This document shows, piece after piece, positions 2,966 to 18,193 of a stretch of 32,000 nt of DNA; position 1 is the stretch's first letter, and every line of letters begins with the position of its first letter. Both the position numbers and the translations under genes were made by a program. A model generated the notes under the pieces. That model did no database searches. It was not told where the DNA came from and saw only the letters and a list, made by a program, of their open reading frames with translations. Source of the stretch: Clostridia bacterium (GTDB lineage: Bacteria > Bacillota > Clostridia > TANB77 > RGIG9151). The stretch covers positions 5,604 to 37,603 of the forward strand of contig JAFSUW010000004.1 in the NCBI GenBank assembly GCA_017450465.1, in the 5' to 3' direction.

Positions 2966-3313
2966 ATGAATAAACGTTATAATAATAAATTAGTAAAAAA
3001 TAGTCAAGAATTACGTATTAATATGACGAAAGAAGAAAGACATCTTTGGTATGATTTTTTAAATAAATTGCCTATAACTTTTAATAGGCAGAAGGTTATA
3101 GGTAATTATATTGTTGATTTTTATTGTGCCAGTAAAAAATTGGTTTTAGAACTGGATGGCTCACAACATTATATGTCAGAGGGTAGAAAAAATGATTTAG
3201 AACGGGATGCATATTTTAATGAATTAGGTATAAAAGTATTAAGATTTTCTAATTTAGATGTAAATAAGAATTTTAACGGAGTATGTAGAGAAATAAATCG
3301 ATATATAACTTGA
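2966..3313 (+). CDS. DUF559 domain protein (Vsr / restriction-endonuclease-like fold)
   Basis: 115 aa. Family pattern: LR.NMT.EE..LW..L, then F.RQ..IG.YIVDFYC, LVLELDG.QH, D..RD..F...GIKVLRF.N..V. Confidence 0.85.
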   Translation: MNKRYNNKLVKNSQELRINMTKEERHLWYDFLNKLPITFNRQKVIGNYIVDFYCASKKLVLELDGSQHYMSEGRKNDLERDAYFNELGIKVLRFSNLDVNKNFNGVCREINRYIT

Positions 3314-3383
3314 CACCTCATCCGTCGCCTTCGGCGCCACCTTCCCCTTGAGGGGAAGGTGGTGCGAAGCACCGGATGAGGTG
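3314..3383. repeat. 70-nt extended palindrome of the same repeat family; probable bidirectional terminator between the DUF559 gene and ypeB
   Basis: CACCTCATCCG...CCACCTTCCCC-TTGA-GGGGAAGGTGG...CGGATGAGGTG. Positions 3340-3383 are 44/44 identical to 2869-2912. Confidence 0.88.
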
Positions 3384-3390
3384 TTAATAC

Positions 3391-4773: not shown

Positions 4774-4838
4774 ATTGTGGCTCCTTTTTTGTTTGTTAAT
4801 TTTATTATCTGCAAAACTTGGTTAAATATGCAATTTAT

Positions 4839-4867
4839 TTGCGTTCTACATAAAAAAGTGATATAAT
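4839..4867 (+). promoter_or_regulatory. sigmaA-type promoter with extended -10, driving the riboswitch leader
   Basis: TTGCGT (4839-4844), 17-nt spacer, TG-n-TATAAT (TG 4859-4860, TATAAT 4862-4867). Confidence 0.6.
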
Positions 4868-4892
4868 ATAATATAATATAGAAGAATATGTG

Positions 4893-4978
4893 AAAATAGC
4901 AAACTAGGTGAAAGCCTAGGACGCAAAGCTTTAGAGGCTAAGATAACTTACGTTATTATGCCAGTCGAGTTGCCCATA
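4893..4978 (+). promoter_or_regulatory. c-di-GMP-I (GEMM-I) riboswitch aptamer
   Basis: AAAUAGCAAAC-[CUAGGU-GAAA-GCCUAG]-GACGCAAAGC...GGCUAAG...[GAUAAC-UUAC-GUUAUU]-AUGCC-AGUCGAGUUGCC. It shows the conserved GCAAAC and GGACGCAAAGC blocks, a GNRA (GAAA) tetraloop on P1a, a CUAAG/UAUG tetraloop-receptor-like motif in P2, and the 3' ...GUUGCC closing strand. Confidence 0.85.
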
Positions 4979-4992
4979 AATAGAAGCATTTT

Positions 4993-5022
4993 AAATCTCG
5001 ATTGGATAATCGAGATTTTTTG
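4993..5022 (+). terminator. intrinsic terminator (riboswitch expression platform)
   Basis: Perfect 11-bp stem AAATCTCGATT (4993-5003) / AATCGAGATTT (5008-5018), loop GGAT, then a T-run. Confidence 0.8.
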
Positions 5023-5197
5023 GTTTAAAAAATATTTTTAAGAATTCACACATTATCCACAGTTTAAATATTATAAAATGCCTAAAATAAGCACAAACTA
5101 TGTAATATTAAAGAAGAATTAAGAAAACTAAACATACTTTACGAAAATGACAAATGAGAAGGTGTATTATAAGGAAATTAATTTGGGAGGATTTAAC

Positions 5198-8100
5198 ATG
5201 AAGAAAAAATGGGTTGTCTTGTTAATATTTTTACTGGCTTTATTTATAAAGCCCTATTTAGATATGACTTTTAAAGGAGATAGCGAAATCCTTTCTAATT
5301 ATACATATGCATATGATAGAAATAATCCTTGTGCAAATTGTACTAACGGAAATCATACATCATGTGTGGCTAAAACAACATATAGTTGTGGTACGAAAAA
5401 ATGTTGTTGCGGTAAAAAGGTTGTAGAGGGTAACCATACTTATAGTGTTGCCCCTACTAGTGATGGCTATCATGTTTTCTACTGTAATATATGTGGTGGT
5501 GAAACACAAGGTCTTTCTTATGAAGAACACACAGATGGTGTAAATACATTCTATTCAGGAAATTGGAGACCAGGTACAGTTTGTATAATATGTGGTTACC
5601 AATCTTCGGGAGGTACAAGTGGAAGTTCAAGTTCAAGTACGCCAACTCCAACGTCAAATCCACCAACTCCAACACCAGACCCAACACCAACAACGACAAC
5701 GTTAACAGTAAATCCTAATGGTGAAGTATGGAATGATAGCACAAGTTCACAAACTTTTACAGGTACTACGGGAAGCACAAAATCATTAAGTAATCCAACT
5801 GTATCAGTTTCTGCAATATCTGTAAGTTATAATGGTAATGGAGGTTCAGTATCAGGTGGTACAACCACAGCACATAAAACATTTAGCCATTGGATGCATA
5901 GTGGTGGAGGAAGTTTAAGTGGTAGTACTTATACATATGGTTCATCTGATGGTATGGCAATTGCGATTTATAGTAATGGTACAGTAACTCTTGCAAATGC
6001 TTCAAGAGATGGATATACATTTGATGGTTGGTATACAGCGTCTAGCGGTGGAACATATGTTGGTGGAGCAGGAAGTTCATATTCACCAAGTAATTCAATA
6101 ACTTTGTATGCACACTGGACAACTGTTCCTCAAGGAACTGGAACATCAACATTAACAGTAATAACTGGAGCAGTTAGTAATACATATACACAGGCAGTTG
6201 GAACGACAAAAACAATATCGAATAATCTAACAAAACCGGGTTATACAGTAACATTTGATGGTAATGGAGGAACACCAGCAGTAAGTTCTTTGAGTAATTA
6301 TTTGATTGGTAGCTATACATTAACAGGTGGTGGCTCATATAATGGTTCGACATATACATTTGGCACTAATGATGGAACTTTAACTGCATTTTATGGTAGT
6401 AGGAGTTCAATAGTATTACCGGATGCATATAGAAGTGGATATGAACTTGTTGGGTGGTATGAAAGCAATCCGTCCAATGCATCTAACGCTAGACCTGGGC
6501 GAGCAATTTCTCCGTCAGAAAATTATACTCTCCATGCATGTTGGATAGAAAATTCTAATCCAGAATCTACTCCAGGTGGTACAACTCCAACTTCATATAC
6601 TTTAACGGTAAATCCAAATGGTGGAACATGGAGTGGCTCTTCAAGTACGCAAACATTTACAGGGTATACTGGTAACACTAAAACTGGCTTAACAGCACCA
6701 ACAAAGTCTGGCTCATGCACAGTAACACTTAATGTAAATGGAGGTAATAGTATATCTCCAAGTTCTTACACATCATCATATGTAGGAAGCTGGAGCCGAT
6801 CGGGTGGAGGCTCTTTAAGTGGTACAACATATACATATGGTTCATCAGATGGTACATTAACGGGTTATTATGAGTATAATACAGTAACATTGCCAACTCC
6901 AACTAGAAGTAATTATAAATTTGTTGGTTGGTATACAGCAGCAGAAGGTGGTACAAGTGTTAGTAACCCATATCGTCCAACGGGTAATATAACGCTCTAT
7001 GCACGTTGGACTCCAAATAGTGTTTCTACATCTACCTTAACAGTAAATCCAAATGGCGGAACATGGAATGGAAGTACGGCGTCTAATACATATACGCAGC
7101 AAGTAAACTCTACGATGACAATTGCAAATCCAACTATTAGTAATTATGTAGTAACGTTTAATGAAAATGGTGGACGAATTATAGGAGATAATGTAGGAGA
7201 AGTAAATAGAAGATTCCTTAATTGGACAAATACAGGCTATAAAGGGTTAAATGGTACAACGTATACATTTGGTTCAACTAATGGAACAATAACTGCAAAT
7301 TATAGTGATGGAACAATAACTTTGCCAGAAGCAACAAGATCAGGATATATACTTACTGGTTGGTACACAGCATCTAGTGGTGGAACGAAGTTTGGTAATG
7401 CTGGTGTAAGCTATCCAGTTACAAGTAATCTTACTTTATATGCACAATGGACAGCAGGTACATCAAGCTTAGTAGTAAATCCAAATGGAGGTACATGGAG
7501 AGGTTCAAAAGAAGCACAAACTATATATGGAACTTATGATACGTCTGTAACAATAGAAGATCCTGTACCGCCTAATGGTTATGGAGTAACATTTGATGCA
7601 ATGGGTGGAAGTTGTGTAGATAGTTATAAAGTTCAGAATGTTACATTTAAAACCTGGCAAAAAAATGGTTCTGGTTTTATGGGATCAGGATATTATATAT
7701 ATGGTTCATCATCTGGTTCTATTACAGCGGTATATAATAGATATGCAGTTATATTGCCAGATGCAAGTTATGCAGGAAAGAAACTTGTTGGTTGGTACAC
7801 AACTCCTACTTATGAAAATAAAGTAGGTGATGCTGGAGAAGCTTATGTACCAACTAGCACTACAACACTTTATGCAAAATGGAGTGATAATTTATTAATT
7901 GCTAATGTAGATGGCCCAAACCCTAATATAATAGGTAAAAATGGTGTAATAACTTATCAAATTACATTAACAGATCCAACAGCTACAATTGATAAATCAA
8001 AAATTTATGTAACACCATTTGATTCATCAGTAAGCATAACAGAATATACATATGGTTATGGATATTCAACAACTCCGAGTGGAGTACAAGTTGTTGTAAA

Positions 8101-8899
8101 TGTAAGTGATATAGATCCAGGAACAGGAAATGTTACTGTAACAATTACAAACAATAATACTTTGGTTGAAGGAAAGTATGCACTAGTTATAGGTTCAGGT
8201 GCATTTACTAGTGGTGGAATTTCTACAAATCAAGAGGTATGTAGTCCATTCTTAGTAAATACTACATTAAAAGGTTCTATAAGATATAGCACTACTTCTC
8301 CAACAAAAGGTAGTATAGTTGCGACATTTGTGCCAAATTATGAAATATATGAAGGATTAAAAACTATTTGGCTAAGTGGTCAAACAGGTTTTAGTCATAT
8401 ATTTACTGAAAATGGTACTTATACATTCCAAGCTGTAGATTCACTTGGAAATACTGCAAACTTTACAGCGACAGTAGACTGGATTGTAAAGAATCGTAGT
8501 GCAGTATCGATGGACTATGATGTATTAGTGGGTGGAACGATATTCCCTAAAGTAATGATAAAAACAAATAAAAGTTTTAGACTTAATCAATCAAAGCCAG
8601 TAGAATTCACCATTAAAAATGGTAGTGGTACAGATGTTACAAATAGTGCAAGTGTAACAGTATTATCAATTAGAGAGTATTATGGAGATACCGAGATAAC
8701 TGATTTGTCTACTACTTTCCCACCAGGTACGTATCTACTTACTGTTGCGGTTGGAAAGGTATTTACTGTTCCAAGTACGACATATACTGTTTCACTTAGT
8801 AAGGTAAATATAATAAATGCAACGACGGCAGAAGCTATAGAGATAGAAGGTTTAAATAGTATAAGAGCTACAACATATGCATTACTAAACTTAGACTAA
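5198..8899 (+). CDS. giant secreted/surface protein: signal-anchor, Cys-rich head, Pro/Thr linker, 5 super-repeats with Listeria-Bacteroides (InlB B-repeat, Flg_new) type modules, C-terminal Ig-like modules
   Basis: The ORF is open from 5147, but GGGAGG (5185-5190) sits 7 nt before ATG-5198 (MKKKWVVLLIFLLALFIKP). Recurrent ...GY.F.GWYT...GG......Y.P....TLYA.WT signature. ENGTYTFQAVDSLGNTANFTATVDWI-type Ig-like module near the C-terminus. Confidence 0.85.
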   Translation: MKKKWVVLLIFLLALFIKPYLDMTFKGDSEILSNYTYAYDRNNPCANCTNGNHTSCVAKTTYSCGTKKCCCGKKVVEGNHTYSVAPTSDGYHVFYCNICGGETQGLSYEEHTDGVNTFYSGNWRPGTVCIICGYQSSGGTSGSSSSSTPTPTSNPPTPTPDPTPTTTTLTVNPNGEVWNDSTSSQTFTGTTGSTKSLSNPTVSVSAISVSYNGNGGSVSGGTTTAHKTFSHWMHSGGGSLSGSTYTYGSSDGMAIAIYSNGTVTLANASRDGYTFDGWYTASSGGTYVGGAGSSYSPSNSITLYAHWTTVPQGTGTSTLTVITGAVSNTYTQAVGTTKTISNNLTKPGYTVTFDGNGGTPAVSSLSNYLIGSYTLTGGGSYNGSTYTFGTNDGTLTAFYGSRSSIVLPDAYRSGYELVGWYESNPSNASNARPGRAISPSENYTLHACWIENSNPESTPGGTTPTSYTLTVNPNGGTWSGSSSTQTFTGYTGNTKTGLTAPTKSGSCTVTLNVNGGNSISPSSYTSSYVGSWSRSGGGSLSGTTYTYGSSDGTLTGYYEYNTVTLPTPTRSNYKFVGWYTAAEGGTSVSNPYRPTGNITLYARWTPNSVSTSTLTVNPNGGTWNGSTASNTYTQQVNSTMTIANPTISNYVVTFNENGGRIIGDNVGEVNRRFLNWTNTGYKGLNGTTYTFGSTNGTITANYSDGTITLPEATRSGYILTGWYTASSGGTKFGNAGVSYPVTSNLTLYAQWTAGTSSLVVNPNGGTWRGSKEAQTIYGTYDTSVTIEDPVPPNGYGVTFDAMGGSCVDSYKVQNVTFKTWQKNGSGFMGSGYYIYGSSSGSITAVYNRYAVILPDASYAGKKLVGWYTTPTYENKVGDAGEAYVPTSTTTLYAKWSDNLLIANVDGPNPNIIGKNGVITYQITLTDPTATIDKSKIYVTPFDSSVSITEYTYGYGYSTTPSGVQVVVNVSDIDPGTGNVTVTITNNNTLVEGKYALVIGSGAFTSGGISTNQEVCSPFLVNTTLKGSIRYSTTSPTKGSIVATFVPNYEIYEGLKTIWLSGQTGFSHIFTENGTYTFQAVDSLGNTANFTATVDWIVKNRSAVSMDYDVLVGGTIFPKVMIKTNKSFRLNQSKPVEFTIKNGSGTDVTNSASVTVLSIREYYGDTEITDLSTTFPPGTYLLTVAVGKVFTVPSTTYTVSLSKVNIINATTAEAIEIEGLNSIRATTYALLNLD
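5702..7882 (+). repeat. five in-frame ~138-150-aa super-repeats inside the first giant gene (unit starts 5702, 6152, 6602, 7037, 7469)
   Basis: Each unit opens with LTVNPNGGTW.GS...QT[FY]T (unit 2 degenerate: LTVITGA) and ends with GY.[FL].GWYT..(S)GG...TLYA.W. The DNA copies are diverged. Confidence 0.85.
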
Positions 8900-8913
8900 A
8901 GGGGGGATAATTA

Positions 8914-11900
8914 GTGAAGAAAAGATATCTAATATTTTTAGCATTTCTATTAGTCTTATTTATAAAACCACTAATGGACATTAATTATTCTGGAGAAGGG
9001 GTACTTACAAATTATACATACGCATATAGTGGTAGTAATCCTTGCCTTACTTGTCAACAAGGTAATCATGCAAGTTGCCCATATTTAGCAACATATGCAT
9101 GTGGTGTAAAACATTGTTGTGAAGGTTTAAATGTAGCTTCGAATACTGTAGTAAATCATACTTATACAAATATAACTTCAACACATCACTATGTTGTATG
9201 TACTTATTGTGGTACAAATAGTCAAGAATATCATAATGATAATATAACATATAGAACAGGTGCAGATTTTACAGCATGGTGGCAACCAGGAACTACTTGT
9301 GCAATGTGTGGATATACATGTCAAGGATCTGGTTCTAGTGGTGGAGGTACTACAGTACACACTCATAATTATACAAACTATGTAAGTAAAGATAGCACAA
9401 ATCACTTTATATATTGCTCATGTGGAGCATATATATTAGAACATCATGACTTATGGACTGTAGGATATGTAACAAAATGTAGCAAATGTGATTATGTAGA
9501 TAGAAGCACACCAGATCCAGGAACTGGTTCTAATCATACACACATTTATGCAATATATGAAGACTATAATAGTACATATCATAAAGTAAGTTGTACTGCA
9601 CTAGATGCGTCGAAATACGAGGAACATACGTGGATACCATGTTGTGCAAATGGTCAACAATGTGGTGCTTGTGGACGTAAAAATCATACTAATTGTCATC
9701 AACATAGTTATACATATAGGTATGTAGAAATTAATAACACAAGTCACTACGCATACTGTAGTTGCGGTGCTTCTATAACAGAGAATCATGATATGACATA
9801 TTGTTGTGCAAATGGTAATTACTGTACGAAATGCGGACATAAAGACCATAAGTCAGAACCTGCAATACACACACATAATTTTACAGCACGTTATGTTTCA
9901 ATAAGCGCTACAAAGCATGATTCGTATTGTGTGTGTGGCGTAAAGAAAGATGGTGGAGATAATCATAACTTAGTAGCATGTGACTGTGGCAAGTCGGGTG
10001 CAAAGAAATGTTCATATAATTGTGGTTATAGAGATCATACGTGTCATTATCATAGTTACACAAGTTATGCGACATTAAATACAACAAATCATAAAAAAGT
10101 ATGTTCATGTGGTGATTATATAACAGAACCACATGATCTTATAACACTTACATGTGGTTATAAATATTGTACAAAGTGTACTTATACATCTGGTTCACAT
10201 AGTTATACAGACCACTATGTAAGTTATAGTTCATCTAGCCACTATGCTTATTGTTCATGTGGTGCAAATACTTCACAATCACATAGTTTAACTTCGTTAT
10301 CTGGTTGTGGTATATCAAAATGTAGTAAAAACTGTGGTTATACAACTGGATCGCATAAATATACGACATATACAAATAATGGTGATAGTGGGCATACAAA
10401 GACATGTGCTTGTGGTCAGTCGTCTATATCTGAAGCACATTCGCTAACAGTTTATTCATGTGGATATAAGTATTGTACTTTATGTACCTATACCTCTGGT
10501 TCGCATAGATATGTAAGTAGATATGAGCAGGTAAATGAAAATGTTCATAAGTCTTATTGTTTCTGTGGTGCGTATATTTCTGAATCGCACACATGGGAGA
10601 CTTGCTGTTATAACGGCAAAAAATGTACATATTGCGGTTATAAAGACCATGATGATGAGCATGTATGTTCGTATAACTACGCTTATGAATTCTATAGTAT
10701 GACTAAACATAAAGCTTTTTGTAGATGTGGCAACTACATTTTAGTTGATCACACTTGGACACAGTGTTGTGCAAATGGGCAAAAATGTGTATATTGTGGA
10801 GTAAAAGACCATGGCTCATGTGAGGTATCACATACGCATTCATGGCGATATGAAAACTATGATGATGAAACCAACCATAAGATGATATGTACAAATGCTT
10901 TGTGTGGAATAGTTCAGCTTGAAAATCATACATTTAACAGTAGTAATGTATGTACAAAATGTGGCTATACAAAAGCAACAGAGGCAGAGTGCACACATAA
11001 CTATAGCTATGAAAATTATGGTAATGCAGATGACCATAAGGTATCATGTACGATATGTTCAAAAGATTTAGGTACAGAGCAGCACGTAATGGTATATTGT
11101 TGTCTTGCAGGGTTAAAGTGTAGCAAGTGTGGATATAAAGACCATGCATCGGATGTTTTGTCACATGTCCATAACTATACAGCAGCATATTTAATAAAAA
11201 ATGATACGGTTCATGAAGCATATTGTATATGTAACCAGTATATAGAAGAAAACCATACATTTTCAGGGATAAGATGTACAAAATGTGGTTATGAAAAGAA
11301 CTTTACACCAGGAATTGCTGGTGGAGATCCAAATAGTCCTATAATACCTGAAGGATCGGTACCTGTAAAACCTGATCCTGATACAGGTGGTTGGATTGTA
11401 GCAGATACTACAGATCCAGAATGGTATGATTACTATAATCAAAAATGGGCAAATATTACACTTCGTGATGGACTTGTAATAGATGGAGCTAATGCTTCTG
11501 TAACTACATTAGATGGATTAGTAGGTAAAAAGGTACTTTCTATGGGTTCAATGTTTGTTTGGATACCTCGTTTTACATATAAAAATAATGGCAACGGAAA
11601 TGTAAGCATATACTTTAGTAATGGTACAAACGATTATACATCAAACTATTATGTTGCATCTCCTGCGTTCTTCTATGGTGAATATTTAGGTGGAGATCCA
11701 GGGGCCGAGTCGAGTTATGTAGATAGAAATGGAACTAATAATGAACTTGCGGGTATATGGGTTGCTAAATATATGGCAAGCAATACAGGAAGCCATATAG
11801 ATGTAAAACCATCCAAAAATGTTTATACATCTGATGTTAATACATTATTTACACTTGCAAAAAATATGGCATTAGACAGTAGTTATGGACTAACTAGTGG

Positions 11901-12921
11901 TGCAAACTCTCATATGATGAAAGCAAGCGAATGGTCGGCTATAGAATTTTTAGCAGCAGGTGCAGGACAAATTCCATTTATAAATAACAAACAGGTAACA
12001 GGTTATGCAAGTAATGGTTTAAGTGCAAATACAACTGACCCAAGTTATGTATGGGATTCAGAACTTGGTGTATTTGGAAGCACAACATATAATAAGACAG
12101 GTATATTTGATTTAAGTGGTACAACAAAAGAATATCTAGCAAGCTTCATAACAGTTGCAGGAAATGATTTAATTAATGGTGCAATTACCGAAACTACGAA
12201 TAGAAAAGACGTAGATAGGTTAGATGCAAGTTCTGCTGAAGCTGTTGGAATAGTGCCTCTTATAAGATATAAACTAGGTATAGCTGATGTTAAGAATTGG
12301 TGCGAAGATGCATTTATAACCCCAAGTACAATGCTTAGCGTCGTAAATAGAGGTGGAGAATATAATCAAGGTGCGCAAGCTGGTTTATTTGCACTAGATG
12401 GTCAAGATGGAAATTCACCTTTAGGATTTAGGCCGGTATTACTTGTATTTGAACTTGCCGATGAAGATGATGTTGCACTTATAGAGTCAGAAGTTACAGT
12501 AATGGCTGGTGGTAGTGCAATTATAAATGTAGACTTTAAGTCAAGTGAAACGTGGAGTTTTGGTAAGACTTTAGGTCAGGTATTTACAGCTGATGGTTCG
12601 GGTAAGAGAGTAATATCACTTTATACAGTAGAAACAGAGGGTACATCAGCAAAGAACTACAATATAAATGCTTCGATTGTAGGAATAGTGAAAAACGGTA
12701 CGGCGATGACGACTTCGCAAATAAACGCAATAGGTTCTTCAACCACTATGGATGCGGGAAGTTATCAGATAAAAGTATCTATAGGTGGAAGTGGAGTATT
12801 TACAGGTAGTAAAAAATATAATGTAGTGCTAGAGGAGCTAAACTTAAAACATGGCTCGAATGACATACATATTCCTGGTATTAGTTATAATGTAGTAAAA
12901 ATAAATTGTATATCAATGTAG
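8914..12921 (+). CDS. giant secreted/surface protein: signal-anchor, Cys-rich head, 13 Cys/His-rich modules, FGE-sulfatase / C-type-lectin-like domain, Ig-like tail
   Basis: GTG start 14 nt after the upstream stop, with AGGGGGG RBS, so co-transcribed. N-terminus MKKRYLIFLAFLLVLFIKP is homologous to the first protein. Confidence 0.85.
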   Translation: MKKRYLIFLAFLLVLFIKPLMDINYSGEGVLTNYTYAYSGSNPCLTCQQGNHASCPYLATYACGVKHCCEGLNVASNTVVNHTYTNITSTHHYVVCTYCGTNSQEYHNDNITYRTGADFTAWWQPGTTCAMCGYTCQGSGSSGGGTTVHTHNYTNYVSKDSTNHFIYCSCGAYILEHHDLWTVGYVTKCSKCDYVDRSTPDPGTGSNHTHIYAIYEDYNSTYHKVSCTALDASKYEEHTWIPCCANGQQCGACGRKNHTNCHQHSYTYRYVEINNTSHYAYCSCGASITENHDMTYCCANGNYCTKCGHKDHKSEPAIHTHNFTARYVSISATKHDSYCVCGVKKDGGDNHNLVACDCGKSGAKKCSYNCGYRDHTCHYHSYTSYATLNTTNHKKVCSCGDYITEPHDLITLTCGYKYCTKCTYTSGSHSYTDHYVSYSSSSHYAYCSCGANTSQSHSLTSLSGCGISKCSKNCGYTTGSHKYTTYTNNGDSGHTKTCACGQSSISEAHSLTVYSCGYKYCTLCTYTSGSHRYVSRYEQVNENVHKSYCFCGAYISESHTWETCCYNGKKCTYCGYKDHDDEHVCSYNYAYEFYSMTKHKAFCRCGNYILVDHTWTQCCANGQKCVYCGVKDHGSCEVSHTHSWRYENYDDETNHKMICTNALCGIVQLENHTFNSSNVCTKCGYTKATEAECTHNYSYENYGNADDHKVSCTICSKDLGTEQHVMVYCCLAGLKCSKCGYKDHASDVLSHVHNYTAAYLIKNDTVHEAYCICNQYIEENHTFSGIRCTKCGYEKNFTPGIAGGDPNSPIIPEGSVPVKPDPDTGGWIVADTTDPEWYDYYNQKWANITLRDGLVIDGANASVTTLDGLVGKKVLSMGSMFVWIPRFTYKNNGNGNVSIYFSNGTNDYTSNYYVASPAFFYGEYLGGDPGAESSYVDRNGTNNELAGIWVAKYMASNTGSHIDVKPSKNVYTSDVNTLFTLAKNMALDSSYGLTSGANSHMMKASEWSAIEFLAAGAGQIPFINNKQVTGYASNGLSANTTDPSYVWDSELGVFGSTTYNKTGIFDLSGTTKEYLASFITVAGNDLINGAITETTNRKDVDRLDASSAEAVGIVPLIRYKLGIADVKNWCEDAFITPSTMLSVVNRGGEYNQGAQAGLFALDGQDGNSPLGFRPVLLVFELADEDDVALIESEVTVMAGGSAIINVDFKSSETWSFGKTLGQVFTADGSGKRVISLYTVETEGTSAKNYNINASIVGIVKNGTAMTTSQINAIGSSTTMDAGSYQIKVSIGGSGVFTGSKKYNVVLEELNLKHGSNDIHIPGISYNVVKINCISM
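9157..11292 (+). repeat. 13 tandem in-frame Cys/His-rich modules (~50-60 aa each)
   Basis: Unit pattern: H-x-[HY]-x-Y-x(6-9)-H-x(2,3)-C-x-C-G-x(5,6)-H-x(3-8)-(C-C-x-N-G-x2)-C-x2-C-G-[YH]-(K-D-H). Units start at protein residues 82, 149, 208, 262, 319, 378, 429, 481, 531, 583, 640, 695 and 751. Confidence 0.85.
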
Positions 12922-13183: not shown

Positions 13184-13194
13184 TAAATTAAAGC

Positions 13195-13440
13195 GTTGAT
13201 AAGAAATAGTAACTAAAATATGTTTTTAAGAGAGCTGTTGTTTGGTGCGAAGCAGTAAAACAAATTTAGTGAATACATCTTGGAGCAGAATACCGAATTA
13301 AGTAGGCTATTACGGGTGCAACCGTTATATTGTAAGAGTGTATATGCACTTGATGAGGCAAGTATTGTGAAATACTTGTAAATAGAGGTGGTACCACGTA
13401 AAAACGTCCTCGGTAAGATAAACTTACCGGGGATTTTTGT
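13195..13440 (+). promoter_or_regulatory. T-box leader, tyrosine-specific
   Basis: AGAGAG and GGTGCGAAG stem I elements. Specifier loop AGTGAA-TAC-A with the Tyr codon TAC at 13274-13276. T-box sequence AATAGAGGTGGTACCACG at 13381-13398. Terminator CCTCGGTAAG / CTTACCGGGG (13408-13432) plus T-run. Confidence 0.9.
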
Positions 13441-13455: not shown

Positions 13456-14679
13456 ATGAAGATTTATGAAGAATTAGTTGAACGTGGCTTAATTGCACAA
13501 GTTACTGATGAAGAAAAAATTAGGGAGTTAGTTAATAGTGGCAACGCGAAGTTTTATATAGGTTTTGACCCAACAGCAGATTCACTTCATGTAGGACATT
13601 TTATGGCACTATGTTTAATGAGAAGATTACAACTTGCGGGTAATAAACCAGTAGCATTAATCGGTGGTGGCACAGGATATATTGGTGATCCATCAGGCAG
13701 AACAGATATGCGTACAATGATGACACCTGAAATAATTGAACACAACTGTGCATGTTTTAAGAAACAGATGGAAAGATTTATTCATTTTGATGGTGATAAT
13801 GCTGCAATAATGGTAAATAACGCTGATTGGCTACTTAAACTTAATTACATAGAAATGTTAAGAGAAGTAGGAGCTTGTTTTTCAGTAAATAATATGCTTC
13901 GTGCAGAATGTTACAAGCAAAGAATGGAAAGAGGTTTATCATTCTTGGAATTTAACTACATGATAATGCAATCATACGATTTTTATCATTTGTTTAAGGA
14001 ATATGATTGTAATATGCAGTTTGGCGGCGATGATCAATGGTCAAATATGCTAGGTGGTACAGAACTGATTCGTAAAAAACTTGGTAAAGATGCTTTTGCG
14101 ATGACAATTACATTACTATTAAATTCTGAGGGTAAGAAGATGGGTAAAACAGCAAATGGTGCTGTATGGCTTGATCCAAATAAGACATCTCCTTTTGAGT
14201 TTTTCCAATACTGGAGGAATGTTGAAGATGCGGATGTTATAAATTGCTTAAAGATGCTTACATTTTTACCACTTGAAGAAATTAAAAAGTATGAACATTT
14301 AACAGGTAGTGAATTAAATCCAGTAAAGGAATTGCTTGCTTATGAACTTACAAGTTTAGTGCATGGTGAAGAAGAGGCAAATAAAGCACGAGAAGGGGCA
14401 AGGAGCCTATTTGTAAGTGGTGGTGATACAACTAATATGCCTACAACAAAACTTGACTCTACGGACTTTGTAGAAGACGAAATAGGGGTATTAGATTTAT
14501 TAGTAAAAACTGCTCTTGCACCATCTAAAAAAGAGGCAAGAAGACTAGTAGAGCAAGGTGGAGTAGAAGTTAATAGTGAAAAAGTTACCGATGTAAATAA
14601 AAAATTAGGTAAAGCAGATTTTGAAAAAGAAGTTATAATTAAAAAAGGCAAGAAGACTTTCCACAAAGTAACTTTATAG
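13456..14679 (+). CDS. tyrS: tyrosine--tRNA ligase
   Basis: 407 aa. HIGH-type motif HVGH, KMSKS-type motif KMGKT, C-terminal S4-like domain. Preceded by the Tyr T-box. Confidence 0.95.
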   Translation: MKIYEELVERGLIAQVTDEEKIRELVNSGNAKFYIGFDPTADSLHVGHFMALCLMRRLQLAGNKPVALIGGGTGYIGDPSGRTDMRTMMTPEIIEHNCACFKKQMERFIHFDGDNAAIMVNNADWLLKLNYIEMLREVGACFSVNNMLRAECYKQRMERGLSFLEFNYMIMQSYDFYHLFKEYDCNMQFGGDDQWSNMLGGTELIRKKLGKDAFAMTITLLLNSEGKKMGKTANGAVWLDPNKTSPFEFFQYWRNVEDADVINCLKMLTFLPLEEIKKYEHLTGSELNPVKELLAYELTSLVHGEEEANKAREGARSLFVSGGDTTNMPTTKLDSTDFVEDEIGVLDLLVKTALAPSKKEARRLVEQGGVEVNSEKVTDVNKKLGKADFEKEVIIKKGKKTFHKVTL

Positions 14680-15495: not shown

Positions 15496-16404
15496 GTGAG
15501 AATAGTATTTATGGGAACACCAGATTTTGCTGTTAGTTCACTAGATAAAATAGTACGACTAGGCCACGAGGTACCATTAGTTGTTACACAACCAGATAGA
15601 CCACAAAACCGTGGTATGAAATTAAAACCATGCGCAGTAAAGGAGTATGCAATGGAGCATGGTTTAAATGTGGTTTCTCCAGAAAAAATAAGGACAGATA
15701 GTGAATTCTTAGAGATGTATAAAAACATAAAACCAGATTTAACAGTGGTTGTAGCGTTTGGCCAAATACTTCCGGAAGAAGTATTAAATGTGCCACGTCT
15801 TGGTTCTATAAATGTTCATGGTTCGCTACTTCCAAAGTATAGAGGAGCTGCCCCAATACAGTGGGCAGTTATAAATGGGGATAAAACAACAGGTATTACA
15901 ACAATGTTTATGGATAAGGGAATGGACACTGGCGATATTATTTTACAAGATGAAACTAAAATAGGTGAAACTGAAACTGCTGGAGAATTATTTGACAGAC
16001 TAGCTATTATGGGTGCAGAAACTCTTGAAAAGACGTTAAAACTTTTTGAGGAAGGTAATGTAACTCGTACAAAGCAGGATGAACAAAAAGCAACATATGC
16101 ATCGATGCTAAATAAAGAAATTGCAAATATTGATTATACAAAAACATCTGAAGAAATAGTGAATTTGGTTCGTGGATTAAATCCGTGGCCGGTTGCGATA
16201 ACAGTATTAAACGGTGTAAAGCTTAAAGTGTATAGTGCAAAAAAAGTAAGTTTATCTGGAATACCGGGTGAAATACTAAAAGCAAGCAGTAAAGAAGGTT
16301 TAGTAATAGCAACTAAGGATAGTGCAGTAGAATTAATTGAAATTCAGCCAGAAAACAAAAAGAGGATGGAAGCAAAAGCATATTTATTGGGTAATAAGAT
16401 ATAG
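15496..16404 (+). CDS. fmt: methionyl-tRNA formyltransferase
   Basis: 302 aa, GTG start after AGGGGG. MRIVFMGTPDFA N-terminus. HGSLLPKYRGAAPIQ formyltransferase motif. Confidence 0.92.
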   Translation: MRIVFMGTPDFAVSSLDKIVRLGHEVPLVVTQPDRPQNRGMKLKPCAVKEYAMEHGLNVVSPEKIRTDSEFLEMYKNIKPDLTVVVAFGQILPEEVLNVPRLGSINVHGSLLPKYRGAAPIQWAVINGDKTTGITTMFMDKGMDTGDIILQDETKIGETETAGELFDRLAIMGAETLEKTLKLFEEGNVTRTKQDEQKATYASMLNKEIANIDYTKTSEEIVNLVRGLNPWPVAITVLNGVKLKVYSAKKVSLSGIPGEILKASSKEGLVIATKDSAVELIEIQPENKKRMEAKAYLLGNKI

Positions 16405-16406
16405 TA

Positions 16407-16440
16407 AAGGAGCACTTGTGTGCTTCTTTTTTTGTTTTTT
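16407..16440 (+). terminator. rho-independent terminator after fmt
   Basis: 9-bp stem AAGGAGCAC (16407-16415) / GTGCTTCTT (16420-16428) with one G-T wobble, followed by a long T-run. Confidence 0.7.
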
Positions 16441-16505
16441 GTTCTAACTTGAAACTTCCTTGCATATTGTTGTAAAGAAAAAACGCGTACAAGGAGGTAA
16501 TATAG

Positions 16506-17998: not shown

Positions 17999-18193
17999 AG
18001 TAAAAGACAATAAATAACGTTCACTGGGCTTCGCTTGATCATTTCTTGCCAAAACGATTGCCGGTCGCTCACACAAGACGTCCTTGTCTTGTCTTCGCTC
18101 AAAAAAACATCCTGTTTTTTTGTCCGGCAAAAACTGTTTTGGAGAAATGTCAAACTCTCACCCAATGTTCACTTATATTTATTGTCTTTTGCT
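17999..18193. repeat. ~195-bp inverted-repeat-bounded, rod-folding intergenic element (MITE-like or structured RNA)
   Basis: 18-nt terminal inverted repeat AG[T/C]AAAAGACAATAAATA (17999-18016 vs 18176-18193, 17/18). Nested helices: 18025-28/18161-64, 18049-55/18136-42, 18058-64/18124-30. Internal A9/T9-type hairpin at 18101-18121. Confidence 0.6.

Follow-up and report, generated by a model that had tools for sequence, protein, structure and literature searches.

A c-di-GMP-I riboswitch with adenine at the G20 position and a predicted OFF platform ahead of two putative adhesin-like proteins in an uncultured Clostridium-type bacterium

The leader RNA and its operon

The window, by which we mean the whole 32-kb stretch of DNA that was analysed, carries two large genes in tandem on the forward strand, preceded by a structured leader with a putative promoter and an intrinsic terminator (Table 1). 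The genes lie 14 nt apart and a G-rich ribosome-binding site stands before each. No terminator was found between them, or between gene 2 and the promoter of the tyrS T-box leader. On the upstream side, ypeB directly abuts the riboswitch promoter. The gene content of the window, which includes ypeB, spoIVA, bofA, a gene for an SLH protein and a tyrS preceded by a T-box, is typical of a spore-forming Firmicute, the GC content is 29 to 37% throughout, and there is no compositional break at the operon.

Table 1. Features of the riboswitch locus, with positions counted from the first base of the window
Feature	Position	Strand	Basis or remark
Putative sigma-70-type promoter: TTGCGT (4839-4844), 17-nt spacer, extended -10 TGaTATAAT (4859-4867)	4839-4867	+	Sequence
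c-di-GMP-I (GEMM-I) aptamer, type 1 (GAAA tetraloop and receptor)	4888-4977	+	RF01051, full model length
Adenine at the Vc2 G20-equivalent position	4898	+	Alignment to RF01051 model position 11
GCAAAC block	4899-4904	+	Read from sequence
First hairpin, CUAGGU-GAAA-GCCUAG, with GNRA tetraloop (GAAA loop 4910-4913)	4904-4919	+	Sequence, RF01051, fold
GGACGCAAAGC block	4919-4929	+	Read from sequence
Second hairpin, bearing the tetraloop receptor	4927-4971	+	RF01051 alignment, fold
Receptor halves GCUAAG and UAUGC (11-nt-type GAAA tetraloop receptor)	4937-4942 and 4957-4961	+	Sequence
Switching strand 'A', CCAGUCGAG (3' strand of second hairpin)	4961-4969	+	Alternative partner 4997-5005
Closing strand AGUCGAGUUGCC	4963-4974	+	Read from sequence
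Intrinsic terminator AAAUCUCGAUU-GGAU-AAUCGAGAUUU with U run	4993-5021 (hairpin 4993-5018)	+	Scan, folding
Gene 1 (1233 aa)	5198-8899	+	Open reading frame; gene call with the same start on public contig ERZ28653690 (XIEF21-1_SAMN15829944 scaffold_3976)
Gene 2 (1335 aa)	8914-12921	+	Open reading frame
T-box leader ahead of tyrS (13456-14679)	13187-13414 (terminator 13406-13434)	+	142 bits; same place in contigs L004/L005

The leader was assigned using Rfam covariance models. RF01051 (c-di-GMP-I) matched positions 4888-4977 of the forward strand with 71.3 bits and an E value of 2.7e-12, against a gathering score of 35 bits, and the match spanned model positions 1-87 of 87. The preliminary description of this DNA had proposed a covariance-model search as a check on its riboswitch assignment, and the result is clearly significant. 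Over the whole window, Rfam release 15 gave three matches above curated thresholds, RF01051 among them. In a permissive rescan of 4780-5210 the E value for RF01051 was 3.6e-14, and two further families of its clan also matched the leader with lower scores. Apart from these same-clan matches, the rescan returned no other RNA family at E <= 1 in the leader, and at the same threshold the stretch from the terminator to the start of gene 1 was free of further RNA elements.

The RNA has the type 1 architecture, with two hairpins, a GNRA tetraloop on the first and a predicted docking receptor for it on the second. Every GEMM-I block that had been read from the letters in the preliminary description was found where it had been placed, and the leader folds better than 200 of 200 shuffled sequences (z = -2.9). 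On these sequence-level grounds we regard the window RNA as a confirmed, genuine member of the class I cyclic-di-GMP riboswitch family.

Upstream of the aptamer, the -10 element with its TG extension is perfect and the -35 hexamer TTGCGT agrees with the consensus at 3 of 6 positions; a consensus scan therefore did not list the promoter. The label 'strong' that it had been given accordingly rests on the extended -10 element. A counterpart, TTTAAA-17-TGgTATAAT, occupies the equivalent relative position in a related leader described below (contig L004). Transcription most likely starts near 4874, as predicted from the extended -10 promoter. Downstream of the aptamer, the terminator hairpin at 4993-5018 consists of 11 perfect pairs closed by a 4-nt loop and is followed by a T run, as previously claimed, and two terminator-like sites were observed in the region compared with 0.4 expected in shuffled sequences. 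The interval from the terminator to gene 1 also contains a promoter-like site, TTCACA-18-TATTAT (5045-5074), from which transcription could circumvent the switch; the leader on contig L087 has a degraded -10 here (around 1930-1970 of that contig), and L004 lacks the site.

The two encoded proteins

In both proteins, MKK- at the N-terminus leads into 13 hydrophobic residues, -IKP and a Cys-rich module; their first 135 residues share 43% identity, and beyond these the two sequences are unrelated. In protein 1, the N-terminal signal or anchor and the Cys-rich module (residues ~25-135) are followed by a Pro/Thr linker and by five Listeria-Bacteroides or InlB-type B repeats. The repeats were recognised by PF09479 (131.3 bits in five stretches, cut-off 27) and by TIGR02543 (64.5 bits, cut-off 20.95), and the B-repeat of internalin B was matched in the PDB. 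The C-terminal ~330 residues have no domain assignment, and the database relatives of protein 1 match it via the InlB-type repeats alone. Since the related locus on contig L004 lacks protein 1, gene 1 appears to have been added within one lineage, with the 5' end of gene 2 reused for it.

Protein 2 opens with the shared signal and Cys-rich module and continues with 12 Cys/His modules, a domain resembling C-type lectins and FGE, and a C-terminal ~150 residues without assignment. It had zero matches in Pfam (E <= 0.01), NCBIfam and PHROG. A phage origin of the cargo was considered and rejected on the zero PHROG matches. A search requiring shared 5-residue words returned two relatives among 5.8 billion protein clusters; P0001 is a full-length relative, 43% identical.

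Residues ~148-800 of protein 2 (window 9352-11331) form 12 tandem modules of ~54 residues, in which H18, C22, C24, H32 and C47 are invariant and H4 is nearly so, giving the pattern H-x-H-x-Y ... H-x3-C-x-C-G ... H ... C-x2-C-G. This spacing of Cys and His suggests metal sites or disulfides. AlphaFold2 run on the repeat alignment gave a confident beta module of five short strands (pLDDT 89.9), for which no match better than E 0.5 was obtained in the PDB. The modules were seen in three proteins, namely protein 2 and the products of L004 2749-4731 and L006 1445-3661. No other carriers were returned by a search with the repeat alignment; this search needs shared 5-residue words and its empty result therefore says little.

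The lectin-like domain (residues ~805-1180) belongs to a family with more than 1000 representatives, mostly from gut-derived uncultured Clostridia and Bacilli, whose members often bear a type IV pilin N-terminus, InlB B repeats or Ig-like domains. Three of these relatives (P0126, P0127 and P0129) combine the lectin-like domain with InlB B repeats on a single chain, and the two genes of the window thus split this domain combination. The model of residues ~805-1180 (pLDDT 81.9) had a single fold match, TaqVP (5vf4; E 1e-8, TM 0.43-0.45), which was also the best match of the sequence profile (E 4e-6); the identity is 13-14%. PF03781 gave weak matches in 8 of 33 relatives of the domain (best E 2.4e-4), and protein 2 itself falls short of the PF03781 cut-off, with no Pfam match at E <= 0.01, so that the resemblance is one of fold. 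TaqVP is the variable protein of a diversity-generating retroelement, and its match raised the idea that protein 2 could be a target of such an element. This reading was rejected because, unlike the TaqVP system, the window has neither a reverse transcriptase among its scanned ORFs nor a template/variable repeat, with no repeats involving 11300-12500.

Export of both proteins is likely. The preliminary description had called them surface proteins, and their N-terminal signal sequences together with extracellular-type repeats would place them at the surface; on the other side, Pfam and NCBIfam profile scans found no LPXTG, SLH or CWB2 wall-anchor domain in either protein. Judging from their binding-type modules, both most likely have an adhesin-like function.

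Related leaders and the ligand-contact position

The protein 2 relative P0001 is encoded on contigs L004/L005, where it is flanked, like the window operon, by ypeB and the tyrS T-box. Its leader on L004 contains a c-di-GMP-I aptamer (74.7 bits) followed by a terminator. In L004 a gene for a 145-aa Hydrolase_2 (SleB-like) protein lies at 1566-2003 between ypeB and the riboswitch; the corresponding interval of the window, 4774-4838, has none. A pattern scan of metagenome contigs for further orthologous leaders yielded one, L087, a close variant with ypeB upstream on a 2-kb contig. The L087 leader has an insertion of ~80 nt 3' of the terminator.

Across the three leaders, 95% of cells were paired in the aptamer and terminator structure, compared with 27-43% when the partners were slid by 1-3 columns as a control. 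Double changes, affecting both partners of a base pair, number six: hairpin 1 has one, distal hairpin 2 three and the terminator two. In hairpin 1 of the relatives, one pair has gone from G-C to A-U, and the loop-closing pair from U-G to U-A. The distal helix of the second hairpin is rebuilt in L004, with 3 pairs altered on both sides, and two terminator pairs are altered on both sides in the same leader. With three leaders, two of them close, and such small counts, this covariation is to be read as supporting evidence and not as statistical proof.

A broader link between the lectin-like domain family and GEMM-I was considered and rejected. A single pattern match (L048) was obtained in 80 GTDB loci and was unconfirmed by Rfam, and none of the 11 lectin-like-domain loci scanned with Rfam contained a c-di-GMP riboswitch. 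On these scans, the link between riboswitch and lectin-like domain does not reach beyond the small clade made up of the window, L087 and L004. The same survey brought up a glmS ribozyme (56 bits) at 16316-16482 on the reverse strand of L009, an unrelated locus from a Clostridiaceae MAG.

In Vc2 numbering, GEMM-I RNAs contact their ligand through G20, A47 and C92, and G20 reads one guanine of c-di-GMP. The conserved 5' part of the window aptamer mismatches the RF01051 consensus solely at model positions 10-11, where the consensus is aG and the window has UA. Model position 11 is an unpaired consensus G just 5' of the G-C/C-G pairs and aligns to A4898. Model position 38, the A47 equivalent, is A4925, the first A after GACGC, 27 nt from position 11 with no indels between. 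The same 27-nt spacing separates the two contacts in Vc2 (G20, A47), Vc1 (G12, A39) and Bc1 (G11, A38) (PMC4744006, PMC11218506). This spacing and the unpaired state of model position 11 therefore identify A4898 as the G20 position and A4925 as A47. The CC at 4973-4974 covers the C92 equivalent. The window RNA differs at the G20 equivalent, which is A and not G, and therefore falls into the A20 subset of GEMM-I.

The leaders of L004 and L087 likewise have A at this position. According to PMC6140456, adenine at position 20 defines the cGAMP-binding GEMM-Ib RNAs, and this is the base found in the window, L004 and L087. The same source reports that G20A makes Vc2 bispecific (c-di-GMP 53 nM, 3',3'-cGAMP 120 nM) and that the natural A20 variant Cbe 1-2 of C. 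beijerinckii binds c-di-GMP at 30 nM and cGAMP at 463 nM. Cbe 1-2 resembles the window RNA in combining the GEMM-I fold with A20, and is described as binding both dinucleotides via a protonated adenine (PMC6140456). By analogy, good binding of c-di-GMP and measurable binding of cGAMP are expected of the window RNA as a member of the A20 subset, with the ligand in the cell depending on what the host synthesizes. Because its G20 equivalent is A, the window RNA is predicted to bind 3',3'-cGAMP in vitro as well, and probably does so; its physiological ligand is most likely c-di-GMP.

Alternatively, the riboswitch could function as a GEMM-Ib-like sensor of 3',3'-cGAMP, or as a truly dual one, the operon then answering cGAMP instead of c-di-GMP. 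The A at the G20 equivalent in the window, L087 and L004 speaks for it, this being the change that defines GEMM-Ib (PMC6140456). The base has also been retained although the cargo protein has diverged to 43% identity. Against this, RF01051 outscores the two other matching families of its clan, the 32-kb window holds no cGAMP synthase (Hypr GGDEF or CD-NTase), and none is known for the host. Strongly cGAMP-selective members have, moreover, been described mainly from Geobacter. The one characterised Clostridium member with A20, Cbe 1-2, prefers c-di-GMP about 15-fold (PMC6140456). We consider a cGAMP sensor or a dual switch improbable on this evidence. That the conserved A20 marks a cGAMP-responsive or dual switch tying 3',3'-cGAMP to a previously unseen kind of adhesin is a long shot; if true, cGAMP signalling would be linked to an adhesin of metal- or disulfide-stabilised Cys/His beta modules with a lectin-like head, in an uncultured spore-forming Firmicute. 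The GEMM-Ib RNAs of Geobacter (Gs1761, pilM) have the fold and A20 in common with the window (PMC9262584, PMC6140456). They control exoelectrogenesis and pilus genes, with pilM being ON and high cGAMP selectivity reported, whereas the window RNA belongs to a spore-forming Firmicute and has a predicted OFF-type platform. Its membership in the A20 subset lends the locus some modest extra value with regard to the physiological ligand of such RNAs outside Geobacter.

Expression platform and direction of control

The expression platform comprises the terminator at 4993-5018 and a mutually exclusive antiterminator, 4961-4969/4997-5005. In the latter, CCAGUCGAG pairs over 9 bp with CUCGAUUGG, which covers the terminator 5' arm and two loop bases. 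The antiterminator is the minimum-energy fold for window transcripts ending at 5003 or 5007, before the terminator 3' arm exists, and its duplex energy is -14.6 kcal/mol compared with -11.5 for the two terminator arms. The terminator lies wholly downstream of the aptamer, and the two coexist in the minimum-energy fold. In the complete leader, the best antiterminator state lies 4.7 kcal/mol above the state with aptamer and terminator, and the antiterminator can therefore act only transiently, during transcription. As the terminator state is favoured even without ligand, the switch could be leaky or largely locked off.

The antiterminator is conserved, being 96% paired across the three leaders with zero double changes. 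In L004 it forms in the same register, GCCGGUCGAGUUG pairing with CAACUCAAUUGGU at -14.1 kcal/mol (compared with -14.6), and it is the minimum-energy fold at transcript ends 2236-2240. One of its pairs is lost there through a G-to-A change that is compensated in the terminator, and the loss is offset by a 3-bp extension, GAGUUG/CAACUC.

This layout predicts a transcriptional OFF switch, a direction of control that the preliminary description had left unstated, and we infer the direction in vivo from it. With ligand in place as the polymerase passes through 4978-5007, the 3' strand (4961-4969) would stay with the aptamer. With this strand held, the terminator would form and the transcript would stop at the U run, leaving both genes off. 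Without ligand, 4961-4969 would capture the newly made 4997-5005, the antiterminator would block the terminator, and transcription would read through into the two-gene operon at 5198-12921. The operon proteins, most likely adhesin-like, would then be made at a low messenger level.

The closest parallel is Cd1 (Cdi-1-3) ahead of the C. difficile flgB operon. As in the window, an RF01051-type aptamer is followed by a separate intrinsic terminator (PMC9262584, PMC6200980), and the antiterminator is formed from the aptamer 3' strand and the terminator 5' arm, in P-A-T-H order (PMC9262584). Cd1 is an OFF switch whose antiterminator is reported to be only transiently stable and to refold to the terminator with time (PMC9262584). 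The cargo of Cd1 is flagellar genes and that of the window two large proteins with predicted export; the spacer between aptamer and switching strand, ~22 nt in the window, is far shorter than in Cd1; and the G20 equivalent is A, unlike in Cd1. The window RNA is thus predicted to work like a Cd1-type transcriptional OFF switch; it departs from the class consensus at one of the three ligand contacts, in a manner typical of GEMM-Ib. With regard to cargo, the functional class I riboswitches of C. difficile are OFF switches, one of which stands ahead of a putative adhesin (PMC6200980, PMC11477304). This one, Cdi-1-2 upstream of CD2797 (a calcium-binding putative adhesin), is a class I OFF switch with a large cargo, as predicted for the window (PMC6200980, PMC11477304). 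CD2797 has no detectable homology to the window proteins, and the window has two genes with a common N-terminal module.

The aptamer could be real and yet no longer regulate, either because the leader is held in the terminator state throughout and attenuates constitutively, or because a downstream promoter bypasses it. The preference of the ligand-free, full-length leader for aptamer and terminator by 4.7 kcal/mol is in keeping with the first possibility, as is Bc1 of B. thuringiensis, which seemed to be locked in the OFF state in vivo (PMC11218506). Among the class I riboswitches of C. difficile, some were unresponsive, and some targets have a second downstream promoter (PMC6200980, PMC11477304), and the window has the promoter-like site at 5045-5074. 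This site is not conserved, however, and over the transcript lengths at which the decision falls the antiterminator is the fold of lowest energy. Aptamer, antiterminator and terminator moreover all persist, with compensatory substitutions, in a relative with only 43% identity in the cargo protein, and we judge loss of regulation to be very unlikely. An ON switch, in which ligand binding prevents termination, is known from some GEMM-I and GEMM-Ib riboswitches such as Geobacter pilM (PMC9262584) but is hardly credible here, as the terminator lies entirely outside the aptamer, 15 nt beyond its last conserved base, and co-forms with the folded aptamer, and the sole competitor found for the terminator 5' arm is the aptamer 3' strand, which would be sequestered upon ligand binding.

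Taken as a whole, the locus is probably best explained by a transcriptional OFF c-di-GMP-I riboswitch over a two-gene operon of putatively exported, adhesin-like proteins. It is established for Clostridia that second-messenger riboswitches precede genes for adhesins, pili and flagella (PMC6200980, PMC11477304). The suggestion that this is an undescribed system accordingly holds for the cargo proteins, which are uncharacterised, and not for the way in which they are regulated, an arrangement familiar from Clostridia (PMC6200980, PMC11477304). What is new is the cargo itself, together with the joining of an A20 aptamer to a predicted OFF platform in a Firmicute. For an uncultured Clostridium-type bacterium, the locus adds one well-supported, conserved case in which a cyclic dinucleotide is predicted to control exported proteins of the binding type, together with a predicted sign of that control, the cargo being made at low messenger levels. 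For proteins that are otherwise unannotatable, the riboswitch offers a functional handle, that of 'lifestyle-switch cargo'. Modest extra value comes from protein 2, which is nearly an orphan and contains a confidently foldable 54-residue Cys/His module unmatched among solved structures.

Two further elements were noted elsewhere in the window. A TwoAYGGAY RNA (RF01731) was matched at 18026-18162 on the reverse strand, in the interval between spoIVA and lgt, with 44.7 bits against a threshold of 43 (E 3e-4). Upstream of the operon, three GC-rich copies of a 55-nt sequence, 80-96% identical, lie at 2763-2817, 2861-2915 and 3332-3386 in AT-rich surroundings. The copies carry the internal palindromes CCTTCCCCTTGAGGGGAAGG and GGTGCGRAGCACC, flank an ORF for a DUF559 or Vsr-like endonuclease (2966-3313), and could represent a small mobile or repeated extragenic element.
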